64,000 bases of DNA from the UHGV virus genome UHGV-1353888. One strand, 5' to 3'. The position numbers and the translations under genes were made by a program. Every line of letters starts with the position of its first letter. Position 1 is the stretch's first letter. Below the pieces are notes generated by a model. The model had not been told where the DNA came from. It saw nothing but the letters and a program-made list of their open reading frames with translations, and searched no databases. Positions 3,053-45,738 of the stretch are shown here, piece after piece. The DNA comes from a virus.

Positions 3053-3053
3053 T

Positions 3054-15046: not shown

Positions 15047-15069
15047 CTATATTGCATTATCCTCAAACC

Positions 15070-23156: not shown

Positions 23157-23645
23157 ATGAAATCACTAATCTCCAAGGTTTTAAAACGCGAAAACGCTTT
23201 AACAGAAGCGGCTAGTAGCCTCGTTAGAAAATACAGAGAGGAGACCCATCAGATTCGGAATCGAGCAAGAACTTTTTGTGTCATCCCTTTTTGGAACATG
23301 CACAATCACATGGATATGCTAACCGAATTACCCCAAGGGGAATGGGTTACTGACAACTATGACATTTCCATGTTCTATGTTGGAAGAGATAATCAGTCCA
23401 CCAAGATTTTAATTAGGGCGGATGGAGACCTCCCACCTGTGTATACCGACAAACACACCCGAACTATATGGGTGGTCGAAGGGATTCTTATCGACACCGA
23501 GACAAAAAAGAAATACTGTCACAAAGATGTGTTGACCATTGGCAAGGGAGATGCTAAAAGATTAACCCTACACGGAACCATTGCTGTAATTTTTGTACCA
23601 CCTGTAGAAACCAAGACACGAGAAACAAATGGCCATACCATTTAA
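23157..23645 (+). CDS. Hypothetical protein
   Basis: 162-aa ORF. Confidence 0.4.
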   Translation: MKSLISKVLKRENALTEAASSLVRKYREETHQIRNRARTFCVIPFWNMHNHMDMLTELPQGEWVTDNYDISMFYVGRDNQSTKILIRADGDLPPVYTDKHTRTIWVVEGILIDTETKKKYCHKDVLTIGKGDAKRLTLHGTIAVIFVPPVETKTRETNGHTI

Positions 23646-26478
23646 CACCCCTGCTGTGAGACCCGGAGTTCCGTCTATTCCCATTAGCGCAACTGACCGG
23701 ACTGCCCAGCCTTTCCAACACGAGACATCCCTTGGACTAGAACCAATTCTGTCTTTCCCTTATCCTATTCTCAAGAACTTAATGTTCTATGTGGACGAGA
23801 TGGTCGAACCTAACTCTCTCCCCAAGAAGGAGATTGGAAGTCGATTTGTTCCCAAATCCGGTATTGGCGCAGGTCTTACCGATGGTATGAGGGCCGCTAT
23901 TCTGACACATATTGAACCCGTAAAGACTTCCGACACGAAGATGATTTACAGGTTCTTCTATGTTGTTCCCCCTTCTGAACAGCACCTCTATAACATCCTG
24001 AGCATTAAGAAGGACAAGGATGGATTTACATTGAACTCCACAGCGAGTACGGGCAAGTTCTTTGATGGGACCCAGGACGAGAACGAGCTCAAGACTTTCT
24101 ATGAAATCCAGCGCACCTTTGTGTATCTCCGGAACGAAGTTCCCCCTGCTCCGGTAATTGGTAGTTTCGACCCGAGCAATGAAAGCACGGACCCCTCTGT
24201 TGCTGACTTTAGCCAGGACCATGCGTATCAATACTATGATGCCCAATTAGTCCATGAAGAACAGGTTCAGTTTGAAGAAGAATATCTGAACAAAGTTTTT
24301 GTACGTGTTGTTCGGATTTACAAAACCCTCCCCGGTCCCGTCGTAAAGGAACTCATTCCTATCTCGAACTGGACTTTGGGACAGACGGTATTTGAACAAG
24401 GCGGACCTGGAACTACTGGGGAATGGAAGGCTCAGAATGCCCAGCGTTGGAGCCGTGAAGTGTGGGCTTACCCCGAAGATAGCACCGCCCCTCGGACTGC
24501 TTTCATTCCTCACATGCCTCCAGAAAGTCTGACTGCAAACCCCTCCAATGATGGGTGGGATAAGGGCTCTTTCCCTGCTACGCAGATGTACACCTTGACG
24601 GGAATGATAAAGCAGTACAGTAATCTGGTTCTGAGTTCCGCTTCGGAAAATGAATCCGGAGACTGTTGCAATCCTCCTTCCCAGTTCATTCGTTGCACTA
24701 ATACCTCCAAGTCCTCTTCCCAAACGATTGACTGGACGGCTAATGGAGACCTGCCCCCCGTGAATCCTCCCGGAAGTCAGTGTAGTAAATGGTCCACCTC
24801 TTCCGAGGTTATGGTTCGTGAATCCCATAGCAACAAGGAGACTGCTACTACGTGCGTGACCTATGATACGGTTGGGCAACTGTGGGAGAGCCAAGTAGAC
24901 CAGCTTACCGGAAACGTGTTCCCGGTCCCACGGACCCTTGTTCCCAATCCCACTACGGATTTCTATGCCAACTACGAACAGGAGGGATACACCAAGGAGG
25001 TGGATGCTATAGGGAATACGTACTACGTGCGTAGGCCCAAAATGAGTATTGTCCAGTCTCCCTATACTGTTCCGGATGATGTGTGGTCCAGCATCCCTTT
25101 CTCGGTAAATGATTTTACTGTTGAGCAGGATGGTGCATCCAGACCCGATTGGGCTATCCTTGGGAGCACTTCGATTCTTCAATCTCCGGACCCGCATGCG
25201 GGATATATGGGGGTGGACGTGTCCTATACTACTTCTCTTCCTTCTCAGGATACAAGATATTTTGTAGCCACCCTCAAGTACAATAACACGCGCCTGTGGG
25301 GAATGAGTTTTGCGAATGCCTATCCTGACTCTGCTCATGCTCCTGGAACTATTAATCTTACGTGGCAGTACACTGCACCGAACCCTACTGGTCCGTGGTT
25401 TTCTCAAGATGGAAACTATAAGCTGGTTGGGGAAATGTCCGCTATTACTACGCTGTGGGCGGAGGGTGCATCCTCAGGATGGAAGTTCCCAGTGGGTGTT
25501 GTGGAAAACATATACCAGAAGGTCCCCACTAGGTCTGAGGTGAATTTTACAACAAGCAATGCCCCCACAAATGTAAAGGTATTTCTTGATGTAAATACTC
25601 AAAATTTGAACTTCACCGTATGGCTCTCAGACCCAACTGGATGTTCTACGACTGGTGGAACTTTTGAGTTACGTGTTAATGGTCAAGTAATTAAGACCAT
25701 CTCTATCGTACTTAAAAAAACTTCTGGTGTTGTTCCTACCATGAGAATAACCCAGGGGAGTTATCAGGAGTACACTGTAGGTTCATACGTTGTCAAGGGA
25801 ACTCTTCCTGATTCTATTGAGTTGGAATATGATAACGAAGTGTATAGATACATTCAGCTTTCCAGTATTCTACTTCCTCTCAAAGATAACGTGTTCAAGG
25901 TAGAGCAGACGGCGGACGTACCCACTCTGGTAGTCCGTCAGTATGTAAATCCTTGCTTTGCTGTGGACTCCTACATGCAGATTCCCGGAGAGGGGTACTA
26001 CAGGAAGTACACTTCCGTCGAGAACTTTTCCTTCCCAGGAGTATTGGGGGGATTCCAGATTTACCCCTGGAATACTCGCCCTGCTCTTAACGGACAACAG
26101 GGAGGGAAGTATTTCGTAAATTCAGCCATGTCCAAGAATGGATATAGTGGGCCCTGCACAGCTATCATCGAAGAGTTGTTTAGCCCCAATGGGGTTCTTC
26201 CGGCATCCTGGAGTACAGGGGTTGATGTCCAGTATATCACCAACAGCGGGAGTTTTCAATCTCCCCTTGTAACTTGTAACTTCCCCTCGTGTCTGCACCC
26301 CTCCATTACGGTTCAGGTAAGCGTTGGCAATAATGATGCTACATGGCTTCCTGGTGTAACCTCTTACACATGGCCGAGAACTAATCACACTACCTGGAAA
26401 CCAGTGACCATGGTTTATGTTCAACCTAGAGGCGTTGGCATTATCGCCCGTCGAGTAACTATTCAACCCCCCGCTTAA
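23629..26478 (+). CDS. Large structural protein (tail fiber or receptor-binding candidate)
   Basis: 949 aa, rich in Ser/Thr/Asn/Gly/Trp/Tyr beta segments, located in the structural block. Confidence 0.4.
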   Translation: MAIPFNTPAVRPGVPSIPISATDRTAQPFQHETSLGLEPILSFPYPILKNLMFYVDEMVEPNSLPKKEIGSRFVPKSGIGAGLTDGMRAAILTHIEPVKTSDTKMIYRFFYVVPPSEQHLYNILSIKKDKDGFTLNSTASTGKFFDGTQDENELKTFYEIQRTFVYLRNEVPPAPVIGSFDPSNESTDPSVADFSQDHAYQYYDAQLVHEEQVQFEEEYLNKVFVRVVRIYKTLPGPVVKELIPISNWTLGQTVFEQGGPGTTGEWKAQNAQRWSREVWAYPEDSTAPRTAFIPHMPPESLTANPSNDGWDKGSFPATQMYTLTGMIKQYSNLVLSSASENESGDCCNPPSQFIRCTNTSKSSSQTIDWTANGDLPPVNPPGSQCSKWSTSSEVMVRESHSNKETATTCVTYDTVGQLWESQVDQLTGNVFPVPRTLVPNPTTDFYANYEQEGYTKEVDAIGNTYYVRRPKMSIVQSPYTVPDDVWSSIPFSVNDFTVEQDGASRPDWAILGSTSILQSPDPHAGYMGVDVSYTTSLPSQDTRYFVATLKYNNTRLWGMSFANAYPDSAHAPGTINLTWQYTAPNPTGPWFSQDGNYKLVGEMSAITTLWAEGASSGWKFPVGVVENIYQKVPTRSEVNFTTSNAPTNVKVFLDVNTQNLNFTVWLSDPTGCSTTGGTFELRVNGQVIKTISIVLKKTSGVVPTMRITQGSYQEYTVGSYVVKGTLPDSIELEYDNEVYRYIQLSSILLPLKDNVFKVEQTADVPTLVVRQYVNPCFAVDSYMQIPGEGYYRKYTSVENFSFPGVLGGFQIYPWNTRPALNGQQGGKYFVNSAMSKNGYSGPCTAIIEELFSPNGVLPASWSTGVDVQYITNSGSFQSPLVTCNFPSCLHPSITVQVSVGNNDATWLPGVTSYTWPRTNHTTWKPVTMVYVQPRGVGIIARRVTIQPPA

Positions 26479-27216
26479 ATGGCAATCGCATCCTACATTA
26501 ACCTCAAGTATGGGAACCTCCGTGACGAGCTAATGAAGCTCGTCATGGGGGACATCCCCACTGGTGCGGAATATGTTTTCCGCAGAATGTTGAAAGAGGC
26601 TCAGAACCTTCTTATCAACGAAGCAACCGTAGCCCCTGACTCAATCTCTCAAAGAACAGTAACTGTAGAGAAGTCAGGAGAGACATTCTCTCTATCAAAT
26701 GGTGAACAATCTGTAGTCCAAGCAAGGACAGGTTCCGGGAGAACCTACACCATCGTGGACGTGTTCTCTTATACTTCTGTAACAAGCCGAAGCTCAGTAG
26801 GTTATCCCATACCATTACTTGTGGACCTGGGGTCTAATGAAAATGGTCTTCGTTCCTACAGGGTATTGAACGGGGAACACGCTCGGCAAGTACCGGGAGG
26901 GCCCGGAGTGGCATCGGAAAACATAACCCTCTATTTACAAATTGCACAGGCTCCTCTCTCCGGAAATATTTTTGATGACAATTATTGGACGAACGACCTT
27001 GTTGTTATCCCGAATTGCTATCCTGCTTTTAAATCTATGCTTCTGTATGTTAGGTTCATGGAGCTTGGAAATACCGCTCAAGCATTGGATTATTACAACA
27101 TGGCAGTCAAAACGCTGAATGACCATCTCCGGAAGAACCGACAGGGAACTCTGATTACTCCCAAGATTGTAAATAACTTGGGGCCTGGGCAAGCAAACCC
27201 CTTTATTCCTATGTAA
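26479..27216 (+). CDS. Hypothetical structural protein
   Basis: 245 aa; the ATG directly abuts the upstream stop. Confidence 0.4.
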   Translation: MAIASYINLKYGNLRDELMKLVMGDIPTGAEYVFRRMLKEAQNLLINEATVAPDSISQRTVTVEKSGETFSLSNGEQSVVQARTGSGRTYTIVDVFSYTSVTSRSSVGYPIPLLVDLGSNENGLRSYRVLNGEHARQVPGGPGVASENITLYLQIAQAPLSGNIFDDNYWTNDLVVIPNCYPAFKSMLLYVRFMELGNTAQALDYYNMAVKTLNDHLRKNRQGTLITPKIVNNLGPGQANPFIPM

Positions 27217-27224: not shown

Positions 27225-28553
27225 ATGGCTACTGAAAACATTACAAAGAAAGAAGACCCCGCCGCCGCGGCAAACGTGGCTACAGGAAAAAGAAATCGTG
27301 AGGCTGTGTTGAAGGACATCGCACCCGCTACCAATCCTAATGTCCCCATCCGACCCACGACAAACAATGACCCAGGAAAACCCCTGTCTCCGGAACAGCA
27401 AGCTCCTATCGCTCAATCTAATTCTAACATGGGGATTCGTCAAGGTCTATCCCCTGCTCCTACTGTTCCTACTCGGCCAGCGGGTTCCCCCAGCAGAGAA
27501 CCTCTCAACCAAGCAAGCCAAGGAATAACTCCTGCTCCTGGGACAGCACCAGAAGATGAAGGAGACAGGGACGTAATCATGACTATGGATAGAGCCACCC
27601 TGAATGAGTACCGAAGAAACACCAAACTCACCGAAGCTCAGAAAGCTATTGCCGATGAAGCCGCCTTCAAGTTCATGGAAGGGTCTCACCCCCTCCAAAG
27701 CCAGCAGGATAAAGAACTTCTTTCCAGTGCTGTCAATCCTAATACTCCTGAATACGCGAGGCAACAGCAACTTACATACCAGCAGGGTATTCAAAGGGCG
27801 GCCAGGGAGGGGTTGAGGCCAGGAGAAGTGGAAGCTCTTACCGGGTTTGACCAAGTAGTAACTCGCCAGAAGCCTTCCCCTCTCCCCACCATTCCTGGAA
27901 CTTCTCCTATTACAGATACGATTCCGCCCCCGAGTACGGGACTTCCCAGCGACGAAGTGTTGCTAAGTGACCTAAGCGAACTAGTCAAAAAACAGGGGAA
28001 GGATATTGCTACCCTCAGCGAAGGGGCAAGGAATGAGCTGTTTGCACAATACAAAGCTATGAGGAATCGTCAGGCTCAGGCCGTTGAGAGGGGGAGGGGC
28101 ACTACGCCCGCTACGCCCGCTACGCCCGCTACGCAACCTGTCGTACCTACCGTTCCCCAGGTTCCTACGAGAGGTAGGACGGGCCCGGTTCAGAGAGACT
28201 ATGACTACTTCCAAAAAGTATTCAACGATAGCGATGCTAGTGCAGAGGACCAGGAGATGGCAAAGGGCTACCTGCTGGTGGACCAGATTAAAAATAACCC
28301 CAATCTCTCTGCTCGGTATGGCCGAATGTTGGAAAGGGACATCAGAACTTTTGAAAGGTCGCTTCGTTCCCAAGCAAGAACCGAGAAGGCGCAAGCCCCC
28401 CATATCCGTAAGGCCCGAGGTCTTGCAGGAACTCAAGCTGAGAGCATGAGGAATTTGAAGAAAACAAATCCGAAAGCTTATCAACTTGCGGTATGGAGAG
28501 AAGTTCTGAAACAACCTCAGTATCAAGGGCTAACTCTACAGCTTGGTTTTTAG
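27225..28553 (+). CDS. Pro/Thr/Gln-rich protein with a TPATPATPAT repeat
   Basis: 442 aa. Low-complexity N-terminal half. The 9-bp tandem repeat gctacgccc x3 at about 28100-28130 encodes TPATPATPAT. Confidence 0.4.
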   Translation: MATENITKKEDPAAAANVATGKRNREAVLKDIAPATNPNVPIRPTTNNDPGKPLSPEQQAPIAQSNSNMGIRQGLSPAPTVPTRPAGSPSREPLNQASQGITPAPGTAPEDEGDRDVIMTMDRATLNEYRRNTKLTEAQKAIADEAAFKFMEGSHPLQSQQDKELLSSAVNPNTPEYARQQQLTYQQGIQRAAREGLRPGEVEALTGFDQVVTRQKPSPLPTIPGTSPITDTIPPPSTGLPSDEVLLSDLSELVKKQGKDIATLSEGARNELFAQYKAMRNRQAQAVERGRGTTPATPATPATQPVVPTVPQVPTRGRTGPVQRDYDYFQKVFNDSDASAEDQEMAKGYLLVDQIKNNPNLSARYGRMLERDIRTFERSLRSQARTEKAQAPHIRKARGLAGTQAESMRNLKKTNPKAYQLAVWREVLKQPQYQGLTLQLGF

Positions 28554-28585
28554 GACATATTTTCTTCTTGCAATAGTAAATATTC

Positions 28586-31500
28586 ATGGTACAAAAAGGG
28601 CACAGTCTTTACGGGCTGTGTCCTTTTCTCTTTACAAGAGAGGGATTAACCAACATACTATACGCATCTATGCCAAATGACACTAACCAAGAACCCTTGA
28701 CTTATAGGAGTTTCGGACCCAAGAATCCGCAAACTGAATACTATAAGCAGTTGAGGCGAGAACAAAGCCAGACTAGATGGCAGGAAGGAAGACAGGAGAG
28801 AGCGCAGGAAGCCCAGCAGACTCCTCTTTCGGAGGAAGCCAAGTTTCTTGATACACTCAACAAGATCTTCAAACAGGAAGAGGAGGCCAGCTATACTCAG
28901 GAACAGCGAGCCTATACTCAGGAACAAAGGGCTATCTCTGCTGAGGATAGAGGAATCCGTAAGAAAGAAAAGGAGGATTCCAAGAAAGAGAAACAGGCTT
29001 CGAAGCGAGACAAGCAAATCAGAGACTGGCTTTCTGGTATCAATACCCGTACACCTGGAAAGTCTTTGGGCTTTTCTACAGAGGCGGAGTATGAAGACTA
29101 CCTCACCAAAACTAAGCCTGAAACCCTCGTAGACATTACCAAGTTCAAGGCCAACGACCCCGAAGAAATCAGGCGCGCCCGCTCTGCTGTTGAAGAGATG
29201 GGAGCCTCCCTTGTTCTTAGTGGGGAACATCCTCAAGTGGCCGAAGGTTCTTTCCGTAGTCTGGAACCGCAGGATAAAGCCAACAGGCTTCTTTCCAAAT
29301 CCAAGTACGGACTCACCAAAACCGAAGATGGTTCTTATGTGGTAGACGAACGCTTCCTTGCTAGAGTTAATGACCCCTCCACCGCTGGCATGAGGAACGA
29401 GAATATCGCTCGTGCCATTGTAAACAATCTTAAATCCATTATTTCCAAGGAAGATGAAAGAGGCCGCAGTGATTACCTTATCCCCGACGTTGAAGAAGTT
29501 ACCAACCTCGTCAGAAACGCACGAGCAAAGAACAGGGAAACCTACCAAGAGTACGAAAAAATCAGGGAGAGATTCGCAGTACCAAAGGGTGAAGAAGAAC
29601 AAAAGGCTGTAGCCCCTGAAAAGGTGGGGGAGCAAAATGGTGGAGACTCTTCTAGGACTCAACCTACTCTGGTGCAACATGTGCTGAGTGAGGTTGACAG
29701 GTTCTTCACCGTCAACCCGGAAGCTATGGAGTACCTCAACACTCTTGGTGCCAAGACGGATGAGGAAATTCCCGGAGCTATCGAAGACCAAAAGTTTAGA
29801 GAGCAAGCCCGTAGGGGTATTGAACTCAAGGACCAACTGGCTCGTGCTATCTCCGAAGCCAACCCCGCCATCGACCTGAGAACCGTTCGAAATGAACTAG
29901 ACGACGATGCGCTCCTGTACAGGGAAGCGGTCAGCCAGTTCTATGGTGGAGAGATTCCCGAAGAAGTTTCCTCTGCTATCCTCAATCGAACCACACAACT
30001 CGCCCAGCAGAGGCAAGCCCTTGTGGCCAGCGACTATGCCAAGGCCGAGAAGGATGCTATCGCTGAACACCTCAAGTCTCTTGGCTTGGATGAAGGGGTA
30101 GCCCTTAGCATGGGTATATCTGGATTAACCAATCGCCATATCGCTGAGAGTGATACGGGGATGGGTACGATGCGTAGTGCCGTGAACGAAGCACTTCAAC
30201 AGTATCAGTCAGGTGCGGGACAGCTTGCCGCATCCATGAGCTTCGGTGAACAGAAAGGCTATCGAGACCCCCTCTCCCACATGCAGTGGGTGAACATCGG
30301 GGATGGCAAGATGGCTTATGCTTTCGTTGACCCCGGCACAAATGAACGTGTCGGGAATGGGTTCATTGTAGACTTTGGTAACGTAGACCAGCAAGCCAAG
30401 GCTCTTGGTGTTAGTAGGGAAGCCTACCTTGACAACCTCGCTCTTCCCTTCAAGATGGGCAACCTGAACGCAACGGACGAAGCGAACTCCTTGTTCGCTT
30501 GGGACAAGTTGAACGGTAAGCTCGTTGAGAACGCTACGGCGGAAAGCACAGGGGGTCTTGCCTACTACGACAATGACCTTATTGAACGAAGTGTCCTTCG
30601 TGCAGTTGAAGCTGGGGCCCCTGCTGAGGTGGTAGATAAGTACCGGGAGAACCTTCTCCAACTCCAGAAGCAGAATGCCAAGGATATGATTGACCAGATG
30701 CTCGGGCAGTATGAAGCTGTAGCTAATCTTGTGGCTTCTGATAGCAAGACTCTGGACACTCTGTTCCCCGGAATCCGTCTCGCAATGAAGGCAATGCACA
30801 ATGACTTCCGGGATTACTATGCAGAGAACAAGGGAAAGATGACCAACGAGGAAATCATTTCTTCCTTCCTTGCTGACGAGCAGAACCGACAGGGCTTCCT
30901 TGCCATCACTATGGCGGGAGCTAAGACCGTAGCCCGTTACAAGGCCGCGGCTATTGGTGCTTCCCAGTTCGTGAGTGAAGGCTCTCGTATCATAGGCCTT
31001 GGAACCGGAGACCCCGCTAAGTACAACAACATGTGGGAGAACCTTCACAAGGAGGAGCAGGCCATTAACACCATCACTACCCGTGCTGGTGGGGTTGCTG
31101 AATGGGGTGCTGAAATTGGGAACGTCCTGTTGCAGACTGCAGAGACCACAACCACTGGTGGTATCGGTGGGGTTAGCGGAAGAGTTGGTACTATGACTGG
31201 TAGGCTTGCCAAATTATTTGGTGAAGCTGTTGCCCTCAAGGCCGCTACTCCCGGAACCATGCGTCTCGGTCAGGTAATCACGAAGCTCGGTGGCGGGGTT
31301 GAACGTCTGGTCTCCGGACCCGGCAAGTCCGCCCTCACTCAGGCTTCCTCCCGTGGTTCCAGTCTGGCTATCTCTGCCAAGCTCTTCACGGATGCCGCGG
31401 CTCCTACCTTCGGGGAAGTGTCCAACGCAACCTACAATGAAGAGATGGCACGGCTCGCCAAGGACCCGGAAACATCGGGTCTTTCCGAAGCCATCCGTAT

Positions 31501-34500
31501 GGAGATGGCACAGAACGTCGCCACCACCAAGGGAAGTATTGCGGGTATCGGATATGGTATCTTCTCTACTATCCTCAACAACCGCGCTGGTTTCAACCGC
31601 ATGATTCGTAAGGCCACGGGTGCTACCACCAAGGCCCCCGGTGTTTTCGGAAAGCTGGAAAGCTCTCTTGAAGGACCCGGCATCTTCAACCTCAAGGGTC
31701 TTCCTGGGAAGGAAAAGGCTATCTCCATTGCTAAACAAGTTGGTCGTCTCTCCGCCTCCGCCGTTGAAGGTGGCACGGAAGAACTGGCTGATGAAGCTTT
31801 GCAGTGGGCATGGCAGACCCTTACTCAGCATGGAGAAATCCGTGAAGAAGATATTGCCAGCGAGCGGGATGTATGGAATGCCGCCAGCAAGATTTTCATC
31901 CTCGGTGCAATCGGGGGTGAAGTCGGCCACGGGATTCAGGCCATGACTGCCCTGCCTCCGGAAGCTTCCAACCGAAGAGACCAAGCCATCCAGGCTCAGA
32001 CTCTCTACGGAGAAGCCATGAGGAATGCCCTGGATAGCGACGTGGAAGGTGCCAACACTACTCTGATTGAAGCATTGAAGGAAGGTCTTGACAAGAGTTC
32101 TGCCCTTGCTGATGCCGCCATCACGAGTAAGGAAGCCGCCATGTCGGTCGCCCGTAACGGGAACATCCAAGCTGACGAGAATGTCATCAACGAATGGTCC
32201 TCCATGATTAGCCAGTTGCCGGACGGCACTAGTGTTCAACTCAATAACTTCTCTGCTGAATACAGCAGGTTGAATAGGATTGGGGATGAAGCAGGTGCGG
32301 CTTCCCTGCATCAGGCTTTTGTTGAGGACATCGCGGCGAGCGATACCCTTACGGACACCCAGCGTCAGATTGCGGGGGAACTTATCCTACAGCTTACGCA
32401 GGGTACTCCCACCGCTGAGTTCGTGGAAGATGTTTCTACTCAGGTAGTTCTTCCAGAAGGCATTGAAGAGTTGGCCGCAGTTGAAGTAGAAGAAGCCCCC
32501 GCCCCGGTAACGGAAGAACTGAAGCCAGAGGGAGACCTTGTTGAGCAGGAGGTTGAGGAAGAAGTTGTTCAGATTGGGGAACGCGACTACGGGTATAATG
32601 CCCCGAACCCGGTTCCCTTTGTTCAGATGCTTTCCGATTGGTATACCAGTGAGACTCCCATTACCCCTGAGATTCGTGGGGAAATGAACGCCCTGCTTAC
32701 TGACCTTGAGCTTGAAGACCCGGACATCTATGACTTCATCACTGATGGTAAGGAAGATGTGGACCGTGCCACGGTTCGCCGACTTCTCACCGTGGCTAAC
32801 ATGACGGGACCCGATGGCCCCCTCGCTGTTGATATGAAGGGGAACACTGAAATTCAGAAGGGGAATGCCCTGCTGACGGACAAGACGGTATGGAGCAAGT
32901 ATGACAAGGATGTCGAGATACAGGATTCCAACTGGGCCGCAGATGTGTTTAATATGGTGGGCGAAGGAATGCAACCTATTCAAAACGTGCTCGACGATGT
33001 TCTCAATACTGTTCAGGATGAAAGAACCCGGAACAATATTAAAGACATTGTAGAGTTCCTTGAGGAACGTGGAGTTCCGGTGAGCGTGGCTACCATTCAG
33101 GGGGACAGCAACATTGCTGGTCTCACGATGATGGACCCGTCCTCTCCAGAACAGCATATCGCTCTGAACTTTAGCGCGAAGAATGTAAAATCCTCCCCTG
33201 CTGATGTCCTGCTCCACGAACTAACTCACGTTCTGGACAACCATCTGAGGGAGACAGACCCCCTGTATGCAGAACGCGTAGCAAGCATCGAAGAAATTGT
33301 CCGCTCCAACTGGGCCAACATCCAGAAGGAAGCGGAACGGGTGGCTCGCACTGCTGTAACTGAGGAGGAGCAGGCTGAGATTGACCAGTTCATTGCTGAG
33401 ATGGAACAGGCTTTGTTCAATAAGCAGACTGAGTTCGAGGGTGGACGTGAGTTCCTTCCTAATGTAATTACCAACCCCATCATGGGAGAGGTGATTGCAC
33501 AAGGCAATCTCCCGTTTGACCAAGCTCTCGACCAGTGGGCCTCCCCCAACAACCTTGCTCGAATCTCTCAGATTGGCAGAGGCAAGGTGAGCAGGATTGT
33601 TCATAACCTCATTAATGCTGTGTCCTCCATCCTCAAGGGTGCCCAGGTTGTTGAAGGGAAAGTTAATCCCAACGCCGCGGTTATTCGTGTGGAAGAAGGA
33701 ACCCTGGCTGACCCGACAAGGATGAAGATTGTTTCTCCGAAGCTGGCTGAATACAAGCCGGGAGTTGAAGACGAGAACGTATTCATTACGGACCGCGGCG
33801 TTGATGCCGCCCTCTTCTCGTCCTCTGAGAACTTTGTCGGAGCAGGGAAGAGACTATTCCGGACGGCGAATGTCAAGGGTGGATTCACCGCTGACAAACG
33901 TACTGGGAAAAAGGTTAAGGAATTCGCTGGTAACTTCCAGACTTACGTTAATGAACTTGTCGCACGAAACGAACGAACCAAGCGATATGTAACTCAGCAA
34001 ACGAAGGGAATGGAAGACTCCGAACGGGCTACCGTCATCAACTCCATCGTGAACTACACGGGCGATTTGGGCAACACGCTCGACCCGAAGGTTACTCGCC
34101 GTATCTTTGCGGAGACTAACAACAAGGTCGAACAAGCCAGGGTGGCCAGGGAGGCTGAGGTGGACGCGGCGAACAATGAGTACGCCAAGTTCATTGCGGA
34201 CCGGAGGAAGGCTATCATCCAGGCGGAGGCCAGGGTGAACGCCCTTGCCGGGACTCAAGCATTGCAGAATGTTGGAGTAGCTATTACCCAAGCTGTTCAG
34301 GTAGCTAAGGAAGTCCCCCAGGTGGACGAGAAGAACCCGATGGCTGTAGCCGCGGCTCGTTTCAGGAAGGCTCAGGAAGAACTCAACCCCGTGATGAAAG
34401 AGATTTACAGCACGTTGGACGAGGATGCTAAGGCCGAAATGAACGAAGCGTATGATAAGACCATGAAGGCCATTGCGGAAGACTTGGCTCAGGACTTCGA

Positions 34501-37500
34501 CAACCCTGCTGAAATCGTACCGGGCCTTCTCAGTATCGGTGGGCTTCAAAACGTTCCCAGTGTGGACGACTTGTCCGCAATGTTCACTTCGGTCATCAAG
34601 GCCAACAGGCTTGGATGGTTGAAGAAGGATGCCGATGCTGTGCGTGCCGCCAAGGATATAACCATAGCCCAGCAAGCCCGTAGAGAGCGCATAGCCCAAG
34701 CCGAAAAGAACTACCAGACGAAGGTAGGACGAGGAGGCATGAAGAATGGGGTATGGACTTCTCCTGGAACGGTATGGCTTGAGCGTGATGCGGCATTGAC
34801 TGCGGAGAAGAACCGGATGGAAACGGTATACGCCATGAAGAGAAATGAAGCCCGTAAGGAACTTCTCAAATATCCTTTTGGTGCCCGCCTGCTCAATGTG
34901 CTGGATGACAACCGAAGAGCTATTGCTACCATGGAAGCTAACCTGATGCACCGCCGCGGAGCCATTGGCCTCGGAACAAAGGTGAGGGACTTTACCTACC
35001 TTTCCCGAACGTTTGCCGCGGTAGGCAAGGAGTCCATCAACTTCCGTAAGGCTATGATGGAACTACTGGACAGCAACGGCGAAGTGAAGCCGGAGTTTAC
35101 CCACCTTGTAGGTATCCTAAACAATGCAATCCAAAGCTACATGAGAGAAAACATCTCCCGTTACAACCAGGGTATTTCAGAAACCCTCGACAACATGCTT
35201 GCTATGAGCAAGGTGGCTGATGAACTTGGTCTGGACGGTAGTGAATACCTTGGCTTCAAGGGGAAGGACGTATGGAAGAATGTAAGTGAATACCTGACGA
35301 AGGACCCGGCCCTGGCTGAGAGTGCTCTGAACACAATCAACAATGGTCACTGGAACGAGATTGCCAAGATGAAGGATGGCTCGGTTGAACTCCGTCTCAT
35401 TATCAACAAGGCGAGCCAGCTAGATAACCTGCTCGCCTCTGCTGATGGTGGGGAGAAGAGCCGACTCCGTAGCAAGATGCGTAAGGCGAAGGCAGACCTG
35501 ATGAACAAGGCGGCGGAAGACTATGTGCTTTCCAGTATGGGAGTAACCGATACTGACCTCCGCTCCTTCCTCCTCGGTCTAAATTCTCCGGAACAAATCA
35601 CGGAAGCATTCAAATCAACTCCTTACCTGGACTCAAGCGTAATCTCCAACCTGATGGGAACGGACGAAAACCTCCGAACCCGCATCAGCAACACCTTGGA
35701 TTATGTGAGAAAGTCCACCGCTATTGAAATGCAGAAGCAGGGGGTAAACCTGACCGCTAACCAGCGGGACATGTCCCTTCTTGCTGATGGTGAAGTAGCG
35801 GATGCCCTGATAGCTACCGCTCGGAATGTGTTCAAGGAGACCCTATCCAAGGAGCGTAACGAAGAAAACATCTTCGCCAATCGTAAGAACCTGATGGATA
35901 GTGAACTTCAAATTCTTGGAGTTCGCGGATTCAGCAATCTCACGGATGCCTTCGGTGTTATTCAAAACACCCTGTCCTCCCAGGGCAGAGCCTATGTCAA
36001 CCAAGTAATTACGCATGACGTAGCAAGGAGCCTTGAGAGGCACGGGGTTGTTACCGGGGAGAGGACGAAGGAGAATACTCACCTTCTGGAATTCCAGAAC
36101 AAGGCCAACCCGCTGAACGGAATGTACGCAGAAAGGGACATCGCCCTTGTCCTCTACCAAGCCATGCGACCTGACGAAGCAATTATGCGGGGTAAGGAAT
36201 TTGGGAAGAAGTTACAGAGCCATTGGGGTAACAACTGGGGAATGCTGAGAAGCATCGGTGGATTTGTTTCCATGCTGACCCTGGTCCGTACTCCCTCCGC
36301 TACCCTCCGTAACATGGCGGGGACCGTGGGGCAAAGCCTGAACGCAGGTGCTCTCCCGTTTGACAAGGGGGTTATCAAGGGATATGGAGAAGTGTACCAG
36401 CTTGCCCAGGACTTCGTTGTTGCGAACATCCTAAGTTCCGCGGGTTCCGTTGGTGTGAGAGGTGCAGTGAACAGTGAGATTATGGCGAACGCTGAGAAGC
36501 GATTCAACCAGTCCATGCAGAGGTATCGTGACCTGGGCCTGCTCGACGCGGGCGCGGCGAACTTCATGAAGGAACAGTGGAAGCAGGGGCTTAATGAAAT
36601 GAGCCAGAAAGAGGGCAGTGAAATCAGCTTGCCCGACGAGGACGCAATGTTCTCTTCGCTCGTATCGGAACTAGGAGACCGGAGCACTGCAAAGAAAGCG
36701 ATGGACCTCGCCAAGCGCATTGCGTATGGTACGTTCGTTTCGCCTATGAGCGTTGCCGCTTCTGCTTACTCCGTCCCTGACGTTATCGCCAAGATAATCC
36801 TCTTCAATGGGGAGAGCCACAAGGTAAGCAAGGTAGTGAAAGCTGAGCTCGCACAAGCTGAGAAGCTGAGTAGAGCAGGGAAGGAAGACAAGCTGACAAG
36901 CTACATGAAGGACGCTTTGGCCGCTAAGAAGGAGGGGACTCTTACTTCCTACATTGAACGTAGGGCGGCGGACAGGACGAAGAACCTTCTTCCCACGGGT
37001 GCAAGAACTCCTGACTGGGTGAATAAGGTAAGCATCTTTGGGATGCCCTTCTTCTCCTTCATGTACCACACTTGGCAGAGTGTCCCTTACAGCATTGGCT
37101 ATGGGATGGAAGAACTTCGCGCCGCAAGGTTTGCAACCAATACGGCAGATAAAGTCTCCCTCTACATGGATGCCACCCAAAAGTTTGGGGGGGCTATCCT
37201 GGGCCAGTATGCTATGATGGAACTGATGCGGTTTGCCCTTCCGATTGTTACTCAAGCAATCATGGGTATGGTCACGGGTGATGACGAAGAAGACAAGATG
37301 CAGATGCTCGAAGCAAGTTCGTTTACCCGTTGGCTTGCACGGAATGCTGGACTCTCCGCGGACTACGACCAGAACGGAGAACTCTTTTTCTGGTTTGACA
37401 AGGATAATGAAACCTTCATAGTCCAGGATGGTCAGTACCTTCTGCCCTATAAGAGCCTTGGTGAAACCCTGGGTGCTATTATCAACCTTGCTGGATTGAA

Positions 37501-38440
37501 TCCTTTCTCTGACAAGAGTGAGGCTAACCAATTCGAGGATGACTACACCGCCCAGCTTCTGGATTATGTTCAGAGCACGGCTGGCTCTCCCTCCATGTGG
37601 ATTCAAATGCTCATTGATATGGGTTCAAAGGAACCCCGTCAAAGCGCAGACCTGAAACAACTGGGTGGGGTATCAGCAATCCCGGAAGCCTTTGGGAATG
37701 CCCTGCTCATGAGCTTAGGACTCCGCCCTTCTGCTGAACTTGCGGGCGGTAGGACGCTCGACTGGATGGAAAGGATAGCCACGACTGTAAAGGATAACCT
37801 CCCCCTATGGCCTACTCTGGTTCAGGGGGTGCAGACCTGGACAGGAATGAACCCGGATAGTGAAAAGGCAGGGTGGTTGTTGAAGAACCTTGGCTTCGGT
37901 GTTCGTCGCCCCAAGAATATTAATGATGTCCTCCGGGACAGTCTTGCTAAAGGTAACAAGGACCTCTCCAATTCGTTGAAGAACCAGCGCATCATGGATA
38001 CCAACCTTTACACGGCTGACCTTAGCGATGCAGAGTATGACAAGATTATCGAGGCTGATAAGGCTATGGTAATTGAGCAGAGTATTTCCCTCGCTAATAG
38101 GTTCCTGGCGTTGAAGGGGTTCCTCAAGGGGATGGGAGTCAAGGACGTTGACACGGTTCTTGAAGCATCTGCTCAGGAAGCGGGCATATCGTTGAAGGCT
38201 ATGGATGACCTTATCTCTGGCCGGGCCAAAGACTTCATCTCTAACCAGAGGTTTGACAAGATTGAAGAGACGAGAGACCGCTTGCTTAACAGGCCCGGTA
38301 TCACTCCGGAAGCTAAGAAAGCCATCCTCCGCCAGTTCCAACAAGCTGAGAAGGTGTATGACATCGACGCAGTAGATATTACTTCCAGCTTGATTGAGCC
38401 GGATAATGTGGAGCAGGAGGTGAAGAGCCAGAAGAGATAG
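28586..38440 (+). CDS. Giant virion-type protein (3284 aa) with one HExxH zincin-like motif
   Basis: Uninterrupted 9.85-kb ORF. Motif VLLHELTHVLDNH at about 33220. The N-terminus is Lys/Glu-rich. No DxDGD two-barrel RNA-polymerase motif was found by eye. Confidence 0.55.
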   Translation: MVQKGHSLYGLCPFLFTREGLTNILYASMPNDTNQEPLTYRSFGPKNPQTEYYKQLRREQSQTRWQEGRQERAQEAQQTPLSEEAKFLDTLNKIFKQEEEASYTQEQRAYTQEQRAISAEDRGIRKKEKEDSKKEKQASKRDKQIRDWLSGINTRTPGKSLGFSTEAEYEDYLTKTKPETLVDITKFKANDPEEIRRARSAVEEMGASLVLSGEHPQVAEGSFRSLEPQDKANRLLSKSKYGLTKTEDGSYVVDERFLARVNDPSTAGMRNENIARAIVNNLKSIISKEDERGRSDYLIPDVEEVTNLVRNARAKNRETYQEYEKIRERFAVPKGEEEQKAVAPEKVGEQNGGDSSRTQPTLVQHVLSEVDRFFTVNPEAMEYLNTLGAKTDEEIPGAIEDQKFREQARRGIELKDQLARAISEANPAIDLRTVRNELDDDALLYREAVSQFYGGEIPEEVSSAILNRTTQLAQQRQALVASDYAKAEKDAIAEHLKSLGLDEGVALSMGISGLTNRHIAESDTGMGTMRSAVNEALQQYQSGAGQLAASMSFGEQKGYRDPLSHMQWVNIGDGKMAYAFVDPGTNERVGNGFIVDFGNVDQQAKALGVSREAYLDNLALPFKMGNLNATDEANSLFAWDKLNGKLVENATAESTGGLAYYDNDLIERSVLRAVEAGAPAEVVDKYRENLLQLQKQNAKDMIDQMLGQYEAVANLVASDSKTLDTLFPGIRLAMKAMHNDFRDYYAENKGKMTNEEIISSFLADEQNRQGFLAITMAGAKTVARYKAAAIGASQFVSEGSRIIGLGTGDPAKYNNMWENLHKEEQAINTITTRAGGVAEWGAEIGNVLLQTAETTTTGGIGGVSGRVGTMTGRLAKLFGEAVALKAATPGTMRLGQVITKLGGGVERLVSGPGKSALTQASSRGSSLAISAKLFTDAAAPTFGEVSNATYNEEMARLAKDPETSGLSEAIRMEMAQNVATTKGSIAGIGYGIFSTILNNRAGFNRMIRKATGATTKAPGVFGKLESSLEGPGIFNLKGLPGKEKAISIAKQVGRLSASAVEGGTEELADEALQWAWQTLTQHGEIREEDIASERDVWNAASKIFILGAIGGEVGHGIQAMTALPPEASNRRDQAIQAQTLYGEAMRNALDSDVEGANTTLIEALKEGLDKSSALADAAITSKEAAMSVARNGNIQADENVINEWSSMISQLPDGTSVQLNNFSAEYSRLNRIGDEAGAASLHQAFVEDIAASDTLTDTQRQIAGELILQLTQGTPTAEFVEDVSTQVVLPEGIEELAAVEVEEAPAPVTEELKPEGDLVEQEVEEEVVQIGERDYGYNAPNPVPFVQMLSDWYTSETPITPEIRGEMNALLTDLELEDPDIYDFITDGKEDVDRATVRRLLTVANMTGPDGPLAVDMKGNTEIQKGNALLTDKTVWSKYDKDVEIQDSNWAADVFNMVGEGMQPIQNVLDDVLNTVQDERTRNNIKDIVEFLEERGVPVSVATIQGDSNIAGLTMMDPSSPEQHIALNFSAKNVKSSPADVLLHELTHVLDNHLRETDPLYAERVASIEEIVRSNWANIQKEAERVARTAVTEEEQAEIDQFIAEMEQALFNKQTEFEGGREFLPNVITNPIMGEVIAQGNLPFDQALDQWASPNNLARISQIGRGKVSRIVHNLINAVSSILKGAQVVEGKVNPNAAVIRVEEGTLADPTRMKIVSPKLAEYKPGVEDENVFITDRGVDAALFSSSENFVGAGKRLFRTANVKGGFTADKRTGKKVKEFAGNFQTYVNELVARNERTKRYVTQQTKGMEDSERATVINSIVNYTGDLGNTLDPKVTRRIFAETNNKVEQARVAREAEVDAANNEYAKFIADRRKAIIQAEARVNALAGTQALQNVGVAITQAVQVAKEVPQVDEKNPMAVAAARFRKAQEELNPVMKEIYSTLDEDAKAEMNEAYDKTMKAIAEDLAQDFDNPAEIVPGLLSIGGLQNVPSVDDLSAMFTSVIKANRLGWLKKDADAVRAAKDITIAQQARRERIAQAEKNYQTKVGRGGMKNGVWTSPGTVWLERDAALTAEKNRMETVYAMKRNEARKELLKYPFGARLLNVLDDNRRAIATMEANLMHRRGAIGLGTKVRDFTYLSRTFAAVGKESINFRKAMMELLDSNGEVKPEFTHLVGILNNAIQSYMRENISRYNQGISETLDNMLAMSKVADELGLDGSEYLGFKGKDVWKNVSEYLTKDPALAESALNTINNGHWNEIAKMKDGSVELRLIINKASQLDNLLASADGGEKSRLRSKMRKAKADLMNKAAEDYVLSSMGVTDTDLRSFLLGLNSPEQITEAFKSTPYLDSSVISNLMGTDENLRTRISNTLDYVRKSTAIEMQKQGVNLTANQRDMSLLADGEVADALIATARNVFKETLSKERNEENIFANRKNLMDSELQILGVRGFSNLTDAFGVIQNTLSSQGRAYVNQVITHDVARSLERHGVVTGERTKENTHLLEFQNKANPLNGMYAERDIALVLYQAMRPDEAIMRGKEFGKKLQSHWGNNWGMLRSIGGFVSMLTLVRTPSATLRNMAGTVGQSLNAGALPFDKGVIKGYGEVYQLAQDFVVANILSSAGSVGVRGAVNSEIMANAEKRFNQSMQRYRDLGLLDAGAANFMKEQWKQGLNEMSQKEGSEISLPDEDAMFSSLVSELGDRSTAKKAMDLAKRIAYGTFVSPMSVAASAYSVPDVIAKIILFNGESHKVSKVVKAELAQAEKLSRAGKEDKLTSYMKDALAAKKEGTLTSYIERRAADRTKNLLPTGARTPDWVNKVSIFGMPFFSFMYHTWQSVPYSIGYGMEELRAARFATNTADKVSLYMDATQKFGGAILGQYAMMELMRFALPIVTQAIMGMVTGDDEEDKMQMLEASSFTRWLARNAGLSADYDQNGELFFWFDKDNETFIVQDGQYLLPYKSLGETLGAIINLAGLNPFSDKSEANQFEDDYTAQLLDYVQSTAGSPSMWIQMLIDMGSKEPRQSADLKQLGGVSAIPEAFGNALLMSLGLRPSAELAGGRTLDWMERIATTVKDNLPLWPTLVQGVQTWTGMNPDSEKAGWLLKNLGFGVRRPKNINDVLRDSLAKGNKDLSNSLKNQRIMDTNLYTADLSDAEYDKIIEADKAMVIEQSISLANRFLALKGFLKGMGVKDVDTVLEASAQEAGISLKAMDDLISGRAKDFISNQRFDKIEETRDRLLNRPGITPEAKKAILRQFQQAEKVYDIDAVDITSSLIEPDNVEQEVKSQKR

Positions 38441-38468
38441 TAAATAAAACACAGGCATAGAACAGAAT

Positions 38469-38506
38469 ACCCCCTTGACCTTCGCGGGTTAAGGGGGTAT
38501 ATTTTA
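38469..38506 (+). terminator. Hairpin terminator after the giant gene
   Basis: ACCCCCTT ...14-nt loop... AAGGGGGT, then ATATTTTAT. Confidence 0.45.
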
Positions 38507-38509: not shown

Positions 38510-39115
38510 ATGAAGAAACTCAAACAACACTACGGCACTATCCCCCCTGGGGGTTGGTCATTCACCATACCGCTCGAAATGAGCGAAGTGCTCGTAGGGA
38601 CCAAGATGATTGCTCCGACCTTGTGGCAGTTGAAGGACGAATTGAACAAGCTGTTCATCCGTAATCAGGAAAGCTTTAATGAAACCCTGTTTGAACAGTT
38701 CATGTGCAGGGATTTGCCGGAGGACTGGTGTGAAACGTGTGGAGATGAAGGGGACCCGTGGATGGAAGAGAGACCCTTCGATGCGAAGAAGATTGCCGCC
38801 TTCTTTATTACCCTGCTCAGATGGCTACGCAATGGGAAGAAGTTTGTGAGCAAGGAGGAAGCCCAGCGGAGGTATTCGAAGTGCCTGTCCTGTCCGTTTA
38901 GTACACGGGATGTCCCACCGAGTCTTCGCCTGGAAGGGTGCAAGAGTTGCGAGGTGGAGAAGGCCGCGAGGGGAACCATCCTGGAAGCGACGAAGAAGTA
39001 TGGTTCCGTGGACGAGGGAGAGGAGGAACAGGGATTGTCTCCCCTCTATTGCAAGGTATGTGGATGCGAGTTAAGAGCCAAAGTCTGGTTTGATATACAG
39101 ACCAAGTGTTGGTAA
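38510..39115 (+). CDS. Cys-rich putative zinc-binding protein
   Basis: 201 aa with CETCGDEGD, CLSCPF, CKSCE and CKVCGCE pairs. Confidence 0.45.
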   Translation: MKKLKQHYGTIPPGGWSFTIPLEMSEVLVGTKMIAPTLWQLKDELNKLFIRNQESFNETLFEQFMCRDLPEDWCETCGDEGDPWMEERPFDAKKIAAFFITLLRWLRNGKKFVSKEEAQRRYSKCLSCPFSTRDVPPSLRLEGCKSCEVEKAARGTILEATKKYGSVDEGEEEQGLSPLYCKVCGCELRAKVWFDIQTKCW

Positions 39116-39125
39116 GAACAAATAC

Positions 39126-39169
39126 AAAAAGCCCCGAAGAGAACTGGAAAAACTCTTCGGGGCTTTTTG
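39126..39169. terminator. Bidirectional rho-independent terminator between the convergent + and - blocks
   Basis: Perfect 13-bp stem AAGCCCCGAAGAG/CTCTTCGGGGCTT, flanked by A-tract ACAAAAA upstream and T-tract TTTTT downstream. Convergent genes end on both sides. Confidence 0.65.
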
Positions 39170-40406: not shown

Positions 40407-40452
40407 TGTTACTGGACTATAGCAGGGGAGATTAAAATGTAAGGGGTCTCTT

Positions 40453-40498
40453 GTGTCATACAAAATAAAACCCCAGGAACGCGCCAACGTTCCTGGGG
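40453..40498 (-). terminator. Terminator hairpin followed on the - strand by the TTTTATTTTGTATGACACAAG motif (terminator-promoter module)
   Basis: Perfect 11-bp stem CCCCAGGAACG/CGTTCCTGGGG. On the - strand it is followed by TTTTATTTTGTATGACACAAGAG, about 50 nt before the ATG. Confidence 0.55.
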
Positions 40499-43300: not shown

Positions 43301-43659
43301 TGTGCTTCCTCCTTTTGTTTGAGTTCTTCCAGGAGAACCTCCTCATTGCCCACCTGTATATTTTGAGTGTTCAGGTTGATAATCTTCCTATGCCCATCAC
43401 CTGTGTAATTTAGTTCAGCCAGATAGATGTCATGTTCGAATAATTGCCATGCTCTTTTCCTCTTTTCATAGGTTCCAAAGATGTCACTAGGCCAGTTGCC
43501 TACATTCTCTCGGTCTTCAACAAGAGAGATAGCTTCCTCCAATGTATTCACAACCGTCAGGTATTCTAGTTTAATAATGCGGCCTACCTCTTTGTAGATG
43601 ACTACACGGAAATAATTACCTGGGGTACGATAGATTGAAAATGTAAGTTGTGGGTTCAT
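43297..43659 (-). CDS. Paralog-family protein, copy 1 (TFxIYRT...FRVxIFKE...TLEEAI family)
   Basis: MNPQLTFSIYRTPGNYFRVVIYKE...NTLEEAISLVEDRENVGNWPSDIFG. 4-nt ATGA overlaps on both sides. Confidence 0.55.
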   Translation of the reverse strand: MNPQLTFSIYRTPGNYFRVVIYKEVGRIIKLEYLTVVNTLEEAISLVEDRENVGNWPSDIFGTYEKRKRAWQLFEHDIYLAELNYTGDGHRKIINLNTQNIQVGNEEVLLEELKQKEEAQ

Positions 43660-45382: not shown

Positions 45383-45738
45383 TAGATTAAAGAAGGGGTT
45401 TAAGGGATTTATAAATACTGGAATTAACCGCGGCGGGATAAATATGTTTGACTATTTTGGTAAATCCCATTGCTGGTTTAACGCTAGTCTGAACAAGAAA
45501 CTTTGTACTTCTCCTGGAGTATAACCTCTGCACATTAGCAGGATAGATTACATCGGGGAGGGTAGTGTTTACGTCAAAGGTAGAGTATAGATTCTTAATG
45601 TACGTAATGGCCTCTTCGAGCGAATAGGTCTATAGCCATCCTTAGCCGTCAAGAGCAAATCGTAGGTTAAGTATTTTTCTTCTTCGTTCATATGTCTTAC
45701 TATAGTATGTGATTTTTAAATGTCGAGATTATTTTTTG

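Follow-up and report, generated by a model that had tools for sequence, protein, structure and literature searches.

What is a protein of more than 3,200 residues, with a single HExxH motif and no recognisable RNA polymerase, for in the life of a phage? The question is raised by UHGV virus genome UHGV-1353888, of which we analysed a stretch of 64,000 nucleotides (the window; positions run along the given strand, 5' to 3'). Here positions 28586..38440 (+) form one open reading frame (ORF) of 3,284 codons, as its listing and translation agree. We consider it probable that the product, the giant protein hereafter, is an ejection protein packaged in the capsid, of the kind called "internal virion" or "cargo" proteins, and comparison with phage N4 suggests that it is most likely a functionally RNA-polymerase-less counterpart of the N4-like gp50, the virion RNA polymerase (vRNAP).

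A sequence-only reading of this DNA had described a 3,284-residue product with a solitary HExxH and a Lys/Glu-rich N-terminus, and both descriptions hold. The motif count gives one HExxH (HELTH, residues 1544-1548 of the called ORF, nt 33215-33229), the number expected from the composition of the protein, which holds just 25 His, being 0.016. Lys and Glu together make up 0.20-0.21 of the first ~400 residues versus ~0.14 elsewhere, and windowed composition delimits a Lys/Glu/Gln-rich low-complexity stretch at 28787..29119 (+; ~aa 40-150). The called start is probably too early. Translation very probably begins at M29 (nt 28670), because homologues in five other clades all begin at the residue aligned with M29 (MPN... 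or MAIDF...) and because the first 28 codons overlap a non-coding spacer of conserved length. Judged from homologue starts and spacer analysis, the probable true coding sequence of the giant protein is 28670..38440 (+), 3,256 aa plus stop; residues are numbered from M29 below, and adding 28 restores the numbering of the called ORF.

The kinship of the protein is most visible around its HExxH. In N4, the C-terminal domain (CTD) of the vRNAP consists of subdomain C1, with an HExxH, followed by an all-α C2 (~110 kDa), without structural homologue (PMC13434306), and a zincin-like domain of the MPTase type has been assigned to residues 2130-2448 of the same protein (PMC5512222). We aligned the profile of the giant family by hhalign with six, later ten, N4-like vRNAPs, using reversed and shuffled profiles as nulls. 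With six vRNAPs the top match joined family positions 1319-1605 to N4 1999-2321 with a score of 54.9 (reversed controls, at most 34); with ten, family 1373-1674 matched N4 2052-2363 with a score of 64.5, a probability of 70% and P 4e-5. Restricting the comparison to the domain raised the probability to 90-91.5%, with P ~1e-6 (best 8.5e-7) and a score of 56.3 among the runs, while column shuffling gave at most 19 and block shuffling, in which the motif block was kept intact, at most 39. The alignment falls in register at both signature blocks, LLHELTHV of the family lying on LIHELVHA of N4 and REFLPNVITN on NEFMAWGLAN. We are thus confident, as far as profile comparison allows, that the HExxH domain of the giant protein is homologous to the zincin-type CTD-C1 subdomain of N4 vRNAP; by these alignments and by the predicted topology described below, the zincin-like (MPTase / N4 CTD-C1-like) domain spans 32582..33691 (+; aa ~1305-1674).

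Is this domain still at work? Conservation outlines an extended metal-site motif, HELTHVLDNH, at 33215..33244 (+), comprising H1516, E1517, H1520, D1523 and H1525 (H1544 onward in the called ORF). In the form HE[LAGV][TSVI]H[VL][LVI]D[NQR]H, followed by R1527 and Y1533, it is invariant in 35 of the 35 full-length members, which represent six clades, and the HExxH stays invariant despite an overall identity of 24%. About 75 residues 3' of the motif lies an EF(x6)NP block (33449..33478, +) in which E1594, F1595, N1602 and P1603 are invariant. E1594, which aligns with the "NEF" of N4 vRNAP and sits on a predicted helix, is a candidate third zinc ligand; D1523 and H1525, both invariant, are alternative candidate metal ligands. 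That metal-site residues remain invariant at 24% identity argues for selection on the metal or active site, beyond the fold alone, and we think it rather likely that the site is competent in catalysis or metal binding. The domain might instead be a catalytically inert structural relic in a purely architectural giant, a proposal that concerns the domain only and that would sit well with N4, whose vRNAP is packaged and ejected uncleaved and whose C1 has no known activity. We regard it as unlikely, since the relatives, at 24% identity, agree without exception on H, E, H, D, H, R, Y and the distal Glu. The site is no copy of that of N4, the giant reading HExxHxxDxH where N4 has HELVHASTF.

Structure prediction is compatible with these assignments. 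The zincin-like MPTase of polyvalent proteins is built of an N-terminal helix, a three-stranded sheet, the HExxH helix and a second helix with a Glu ligand (Iyer et al. 2017, PMC5512222), and its phage-type subfamily carries an Asp three residues past the HExxH (PMC5512222). AlphaFold2 (AF2) models of aa 1300-1960 and aa 2360-3100 were built from five sequences and have a mean predicted local distance difference test (pLDDT) of 48-49. In the first (mean pLDDT 48), helix 152-167 is followed by strands 172-178, 186-189 and 196-202, by helix 211-230 and, further on, by helix 292-302, with local pLDDT of 55-72. The HExxH falls on helix 211-230, so that the order, at low confidence, would be helix, three strands, HExxH helix and later Glu helix. 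All three Foldseek searches were non-significant; their sub-threshold matches include selecase and Ste24p (E ~1.4-1.8), a phage "lethal factor" (E 0.09), an M34 endopeptidase and an ART-PolyVal protein, and the zincin-like folds among them do not contradict the zincin reading of the model. The long helical regions that the sequence-only reading had proposed do appear in the AF2 secondary structure, low-confidence models being their sole basis.

If the zincin is shared with N4 vRNAP, is the polymerase shared as well? By every profile and motif that we applied, the giant protein is without a detectable RNA-polymerase module, whether of the N4/T7 type or two-barrel. The N4 polymerase domain (998-2000) scored 21.8 against the whole giant family, the null maximum being 23.8, and it was missing from the top matches with the ten-vRNAP profile. 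RNA polymerase (RNAP) families of Pfam, PHROG and NCBIfam gave no match in the four clades scanned. The two-barrel signatures DxDGD and NADFDGD, which the sequence-only reading could not find by eye, are absent from eight representatives of six clades, and DxDxD, missing from the giant protein of the window, is absent from four clades and not conserved in the remainder. Profile searches also found no complete known enzyme spanning the protein. The architecture agrees: the zincin domain directly follows the N-terminal part and an acidic linker, at the spot of the junction between N-terminal domain (NTD), linker and RNAP in N4, and there is no room for an insert of ~1,100 aa at the N4 polymerase position. 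Further on, the AF2 model of aa 2360-3100 (mean pLDDT 49) is, at low confidence, nearly all α, with helices of 40-65 residues, a single hairpin and no palm-like sheet; the C-terminal core gave no fold, sequence or profile match.

A true but extremely divergent virion RNAP seems to us highly unlikely; its module would have to lie concealed among the ~2,900 unassigned residues, and the phage would initiate early transcription by itself, in the manner of N4 and crAss-like phages. In favour of such a polymerase, the giant protein resembles N4 gp50 in size, in being encoded where the late block ends, in its C1-type zincin and in lacking Cys; no other RNAP or DNA polymerase gene is recognisable in the 64-kb window, and an element of ~100 nt is repeated 5-6 times before the early genes. 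This reading is opposed by the sub-null score of the N4 polymerase domain, by the lack of Pfam or PHROG RNAP matches in any clade scanned and of DxDGD or NADFDGD, with DxDxD unconserved, by the direct succession of NTD, linker and zincin, which leaves no space for the insert, and by a C-terminal core predicted, at low confidence, as all-α with one hairpin and no palm-like sheet. The early element, moreover, carries an ordinary TTGCGT-N16-TATAAA box, which suggests host RNAP. There is a still slighter chance that the ~2,900 residues outside the zincin, which resemble nothing known and contain invariant blocks such as KxLxPTGxRTPxWV, PxFxFxYHT and YDxxG, hide a new catalytic module, for example a non-canonical polymerase or another genome-entry enzyme standing in for the N4 polymerase domain; were this true, an abundant gut phage lineage would inject an enzyme of an undescribed kind.

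The repeated element lies between genes, before minus-strand genes that are probably early, in 5-6 copies (49577-49667, 50511-50617, 52035-52125, 52940-53046 and 55412-55516, with a partial copy at 40450-40466). Read on the minus strand, it consists of GTATGACACAAGG, ~12 nt, CCTTGCGT, N16, TATAAA, a GGGG...CCCC hairpin and a conserved A-rich start region (AATTAGAAAGACATAAGAAAATG) without Shine-Dalgarno sequence. With its sigma70-like TTGCGT-N16-TATAAA it is probably an early promoter combined with an operator and a 5' untranslated region cassette. Since these sigma70-like promoters are repeated before the early genes, early transcription is probably carried out by the host RNA polymerase; a box of similar form stands before the giant gene in all clades. 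No DNA or RNA polymerase was recognised in the 64-kb window.

How far, then, does the likeness to N4 gp50 extend beyond the zincin? The two proteins are of similar size (3,200-3,600 aa), contain no Cys and carry a low-complexity linker after the N-terminal part; in both, the zincin-type domain stands in register (HExxH; xEF with NEF) and is followed by a long region without known relatives, all-α in N4 and predicted to be so in the giant protein. Unlike gp50, the giant protein has no T7-like polymerase domain, and its zincin lies at aa ~1516 versus ~2,230. Its linker, recognised by composition and by gap-rich alignment columns (1281-1320), occupies 32435..32578 (+; aa 1256-1303), holds 15 Asp/Glu, 1 Lys/Arg and 4 Pro in 48 residues and differs in length among clades. 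Upstream of it, the conservation map and hydropathy mark a Gly/Ala-rich amphipathic region of the N-terminal part at 31112..31954 (+; aa ~815-1095), with the invariant EGxxEELxDE...W (1033-1046) and KIFILGAIGGE. In N4, helices 224-278 insert into nanodiscs (PMC13434306). The hydropathy of the Gly/Ala-rich region is moderate and comparable to that of these nanodisc-inserting NTD segments, which makes the region a suggestive candidate for membrane association; classical transmembrane segments were not found in the giant protein, one weak Kyte-Doolittle window of 19 residues exceeding 1.4, and a search for internal repeats ("beads") found none. Profiles give a weak match of family 823-1183 to N4 225-546, whose score rose from 39.5 to 44.3 with a richer profile (controls ~34); at the domain level the same pair scored 28 versus nulls of 18.8 and 23.8, with a probability of 2-6%, and is weak. 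The C-terminal ~1,580 residues (33692..38437, +) are predicted, from the AF2 model of aa 2360-3100, to be almost entirely α-helical, and conservation marks in them the invariant blocks LSKxRxxEN (2392-2400), PxxTxRNxxGTxxQ (2542-2555), KxLxPTGxRTPxWV (2771-2784), PxFxFxYHT (2793-2801) and YDxxG (2899-2903). Against N4 C2 this part showed no profile similarity above the null, and the shared all-α prediction is no evidence of homology; by analogy with CTD-C2 of N4, the C-terminal part may have a role in encapsidation or regulation. Homology of the entire NTD-C1-C2 scaffold to N4 gp50 is possible but doubtful. Were it to hold, the giant ejectosome scaffold would be independent of the polymerase module, which would have been inserted in the N4 lineage or lost here.

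Would such a protein travel in the virion? The absence of Cys and the gene order fit a capsid-packaged, ejected cargo protein. The giant protein has 0 Cys in 3,256 residues, versus ~31 expected from the 0.94% Cys of the other plus-strand proteins of the window, and in the 35 family members counted the number never exceeds 3, with a median of 0. N4-like vRNAPs (3,220-3,595 aa) are free of Cys in ten cases out of ten, as are the co-ejected gp51 and gp52 of N4, and the tail plug gp53 has 4. In the window, the 442-aa protein encoded directly upstream (27225..28553, +) stands in the position of N4 gp51, evolves fast and lacks Cys in all 32 distinct members of its family; by analogy it is a candidate co-ejected partner of the giant protein. 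The other neighbours do contain Cys, 6-17 in the 949-aa protein, 1-5 in the 245-aa protein and 11-12 in the 201-aa protein downstream. Strict avoidance of Cys is thus common to the known ejected proteins of N4, the giant protein and its upstream neighbour, an observation that we believe to be new. The word "cysteine" is absent from the one N4 structure paper examined for it (PMC13434306).

The order of the genes repeats that of N4 in outline. Along the window TerL is followed, with further genes between, by proteins of 761, 386, 424, 202, 315 and 629 aa, and then by lysin, 162, 949, 245, 442, the giant protein and 201 aa, after which the coding strand switches; the module of lysin, ~120, ~160, ~900, ~245, ~400, giant and ~200 aa is kept in all clades, the 201-aa protein being without match in the clade-C representative L008. 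The late block of N4 runs from TerL to the portal (763 aa), 115, 405, the major capsid protein (401), 208, 299, gp53 (885, plug), gp52 (150), gp51 (644) and gp50 (3,500), again with a strand switch, and a vRNAP gene at the end of the block before a strand switch is also found in eight other Schitoviridae loci. In both phages, therefore, the giant gene is the last large gene of the late block and is preceded by large, small and medium genes for virion or ejection proteins. The synteny is an organisational parallel. Unlike N4, the phage of the window has no recognisable N4 core genes and its neighbouring proteins are not detectably homologous: BLAST and phmmer of all plus-strand proteins against the N4 late proteins found no homology, nor did hhalign of the 949-, 245-, 442-, 201- and 162-aa family profiles against N4 gp51-gp69. 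The sequence-only reading had placed the giant ORF at the end of a structural block; it is in fact the second-to-last ORF of the plus-strand block, the 201-aa ORF coming after it, and the block also holds ThyX, a SprT-like protein and the lysin.

Gene order also bears on whether the giant protein, its embedded peptidase domain included, could serve a long-tailed phage as tape measure or tail-lumen protein. Like tape-measure proteins, it is very long and predicted to be helical, with Gly-rich amphipathic stretches, and its sub-threshold fold matches include "tape measure" and "minor tail" proteins. Some tape-measure proteins do carry peptidase domains. Its length is nevertheless extreme, as the tape-measure rule of ~0.15 nm per residue would make a tail ~490 nm long from 3,256 aa. 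Siphoviruses and myoviruses have their distal tail genes after the tape-measure gene; here nothing structural lies 3' of the giant gene, where all clades have just the 201-aa Cys-rich ORF, terminators and the strand switch, and no tail-tube, sheath, chaperone-frameshift, Dit or Tal genes are recognisable. The zincin, besides, has its specific homologue in a protein ejected from the capsid. We judge a tape-measure role very unlikely.

The family to which the giant protein belongs is rare in sequence space and common in one habitat, the human gut. A first search of 5.8 billion proteins returned 7 relatives, with 98% and 49% identity; an exhaustive hidden Markov model scan, in which residues 1040-2190 were run against 1.84 billion cluster representatives, added two more giants (3,381 and 3,211 aa) and a 100-aa fragment; and a scan of metagenome contigs yielded 30 loci, many labelled human-gut metagenome, the contigs measuring 65-75 kb. 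With one metagenome relative as seed, a further search returned ~400 clusters at 90% identity, mostly from human-gut metagenome contigs of ~70 kb and all of ~3,200 aa and without Pfam domain, of which the few source-named members are called "hypothetical protein". No copy was found in 185,579 reference bacterial and archaeal genomes, prophages included, and tblastn with the clade A and clade F giants gave no match among 50,697 GenBank phages. For the giant protein of the window, its thirds and three other clades, Pfam, PHROGs and NCBIfam yielded nothing above threshold, with PTPS (E 0.009, over the HExxH) and, on the 100-aa fragment, Peptidase_M91 (E 0.007) below the cut-off; sequence searches of the PDB with two-, five- and seven-sequence profiles gave nothing below E 0.2. 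The giant protein is found solely in this phage lineage, an uncharacterised group of common human-gut phages of ~70 kb that are most likely lytic. The TerL of the window has as its best GenBank match one of 34% identity over 14% of its length, and the lineage has essentially no GenBank relatives.

Members of the family measure 3,200-3,400 aa and are collinear end to end over at least six clades, at 24-55% identity: clade A, that of the window, shares 51% with clade B and 24% with clades C-F, which share 31-55% among themselves. Invariant positions number 251 and are spread over the whole length. The architecture is therefore fixed and no shuffled mosaic, so far as these sequences tell.

This constancy is relevant to the "polyvalent" effectors of Iyer et al. 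(2017), giant proteins in which a zincin MPTase is the hub domain. On that account the giant protein would serve chiefly in counter-defence or host takeover within the cytoplasm and not in building a conduit, its zincin freeing effector pieces, whether packaged or not, an interpretation that we consider rather improbable and that overlaps heavily with an ejected cargo protein, the difference being mainly one of emphasis. Phage-type polyvalent proteins such as phi24B gp47 (2,811 aa) are, like ours, giant, have an MPTase core with an Asp three residues past the HExxH (PMC5512222) and are thought to be co-delivered with the DNA; phi24B gp47, detected in virions, has been put forward as an ejection protein. 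The giant protein is also encoded by one of the fastest-evolving genes of its module, as in an arms race: between clade A and clades C-F, identity falls to 24-25% for the giant protein and 27-29% for its 442-aa neighbour, the lysin and the 162-aa protein also changing much faster than the 949-, 245- and 201-aa proteins, which keep 40-50%. We count this difference in rate among the independent signs of an ejected protein as well. The sub-threshold fold match to an ART-PolyVal protein points the same way. Polyvalent proteins, on the other hand, combine two to fifteen disparate domains per polypeptide, LPD domains among them, in combinatorial fashion (Iyer et al. 2017, PMC5512222), whereas no LPD, MuF, ART, helicase, methylase or other second domain was recognised in any clade scanned and all six clades share one fixed, collinear architecture. 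The His at the end of strand 2 that marks the subfamily is not conserved either, being H in the clade of the window and Y in clade B.

Two further systems deserve comparison. The gp16/gp15/gp14 core (ejectosome) of T7 has the role that we propose for the giant protein, being stored in the capsid and ejected to form a conduit across the envelope, with its largest component at the inner membrane (PMC13434306); unlike T7 gp16, the giant protein shows no sequence or profile relation to it, lacks a lytic transglycosylase domain and is ~2.5 times the size. The giant proteins of crAss-like phages (phi14:2 gp66-type vRNAP, cargo) are similarly encoded by giant genes that end the structural module of a gut phage, and pieces of them appear among the sub-threshold fold matches (E 0.024-0.04). 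The giant protein differs in having no DxDGD in any clade and no GenBank sequence match, and its genome is of ~70 kb versus ~95-190 kb. The link to crAss-like phages drawn by the sequence-only reading thus comes down to sub-threshold fold matches and finds no sequence match. That reading had also offered a tail needle; a needle or fibre role is rejected, as there are no β-rich or other fibre/needle repeats and aa 1300-1960 and 2360-3100 are predicted, at low confidence, to be nearly all helical. Its proposal of a multidomain cargo protein with an embedded metallopeptidase fares better, the metallopeptidase and cargo parts being favoured by the zincin homology, the invariant motif and Glu, the absence of Cys and the gene order; as to "multidomain", one domain is recognisable.

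How might such a protein act? We outline a mechanism modelled on that of N4 (Bellis et al. 2026, PMC13434306), from which the ejection roles of N4 gp50, gp51, gp52 and gp53 are also taken, and every step of it is one that we infer. A few copies of the giant protein would be stored in the capsid, loosely folded and free of disulfides. After adsorption and receptor binding they would leave by way of the tail, following the smaller Cys-free ejection protein or proteins. In the N-terminal part, Gly/Ala-rich amphipathic helices could then engage the cytoplasmic membrane and help to build or anchor a DNA conduit, with the acidic linker supplying flexibility. The zincin domain might next cleave the giant protein itself, a partner or a host target, and the helical C-terminal part may serve in encapsidation or in another cytoplasmic role.

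Several points weigh against an ejected counterpart of gp50. Packaging of the giant protein into the virion is deduced from composition and gene position in a lineage known from its sequences. Statistically supported homology to N4 gp50 is confined to the C1-like domain, ~10% of the protein, the similarity of the NTD being marginal and that of C2 nil. The neighbouring proteins have no homology to N4 gp51-gp54, so the synteny argument is one of sizes and order. Absence of Cys is shared by proteins that are not ejected, namely the N4 major capsid protein gp56 and gp57. The AF2 models are of low confidence (pLDDT 48-49), and the fold searches all fell below significance. As for a peptidase, N4 vRNAP is packaged uncleaved (PMC5512222), and its C1 subdomain, the homologous part, is not known to be proteolytic (PMC13434306).

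The surroundings of the giant gene add some regulatory features. The 949- and 245-aa proteins (23629..27216, +; 40-59% identity), standing where N4 has gp53 (tail plug) and gp52, precede the 442-aa gene, which is separated from the giant gene by a spacer (28554..28669, +) with a sigma70-like box of TTGCAA (28568-28573), N16 and TACAAA (28590-28595), a 14-bp hairpin (28595-28626) and a T-rich run. In the five clades compared (the window, L001, L008, L009 and L040) the spacer measures 103-117 nt, and all five have, at a conserved position, a TTGAC(A/C)-N16/17-TAnnnT box, and a GC hairpin of 12-14 bp, whose position relative to the -10-like box differs among clades. Such a spacer could serve as promoter, attenuator or processing site, and might set a low expression of the giant gene. 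A terminator-like hairpin with a 15-bp stem and a T-rich tail (38467..38500, +) begins 27 nt past the stop of the giant gene; it is followed by the 201-aa Cys-rich ORF (38510..39115, +; 11-12 Cys, 43-99% identity in most clades), for which no family match was found and whose product may bind zinc, after which a perfect inverted repeat of 17 bp (39125-39169) precedes the strand switch.

Elsewhere in the window, a PHROG scan of ten large plus-strand ORFs matched TerL alone, the giant protein has no PHROG match either, and no tRNA genes were found. Amid the virion genes, at 15016-16433, lie a ThyX thymidylate synthase gene (Pfam Thy1, E 4.5e-51) and one for a separate SprT-like zincin protein (E 5.6e-11); in clade F (L040) the ThyX gene is on the other strand and adjoins a NAD-dependent DNA ligase. 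Upstream of a gene for a 1,006-aa VapE / DUF5906 primase-helicase-like protein (58894-61914) there is a cluster of iteron-like direct repeats of ~35 nt (56842-57083), together with an inverted repeat of 50 nt (57099-57148 / 57412-57461), and this cluster with its inverted repeat is a likely replication origin. The minus strand also carries tandem paralogous ORFs of ~111-120 aa (43500-45400), whose repeats are spaced by 353-362 nt and share 60-77% identity, and, at the end of its block, an ORF resembling HNH_3 and NUMOD4 homing endonucleases (55535-56227). A clade-B phage (L001, 25580-26791) has a TnpB / OrfB_IS605 (Cas12f-like) gene among its small minus-strand genes, absent at the corresponding place of the window.

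Giant ejected proteins are the least understood part of infection by short-tailed phages. The structure of N4 vRNAP was solved in 2025-26, and two-thirds of it (NTD, C1 and C2) has no assigned function. Giant phage proteins co-delivered with DNA and built around a zincin hub were known already, from polyvalent proteins, N4 gp50 and phi24B gp47. What the present family would add is a large unannotated gut-phage lineage whose giant protein matches N4 gp50 in C1-type zincin, linker logic, gene position and lack of Cys but is without the polymerase, together with an extended invariant HExxHxxDxH...E site. The giant protein would thereby separate the transport or ejectosome functions from that of transcription, and its family, with eight invariant residues around the metal site, offers a comparative handle on the purpose of C1. 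Strict avoidance of Cys may prove a cheap predictor of ejected proteins from sequence. Overall, the ~400 clusters of the family, unannotated and absent from GenBank phage records, mark an uncharacterised major lineage of gut phages.

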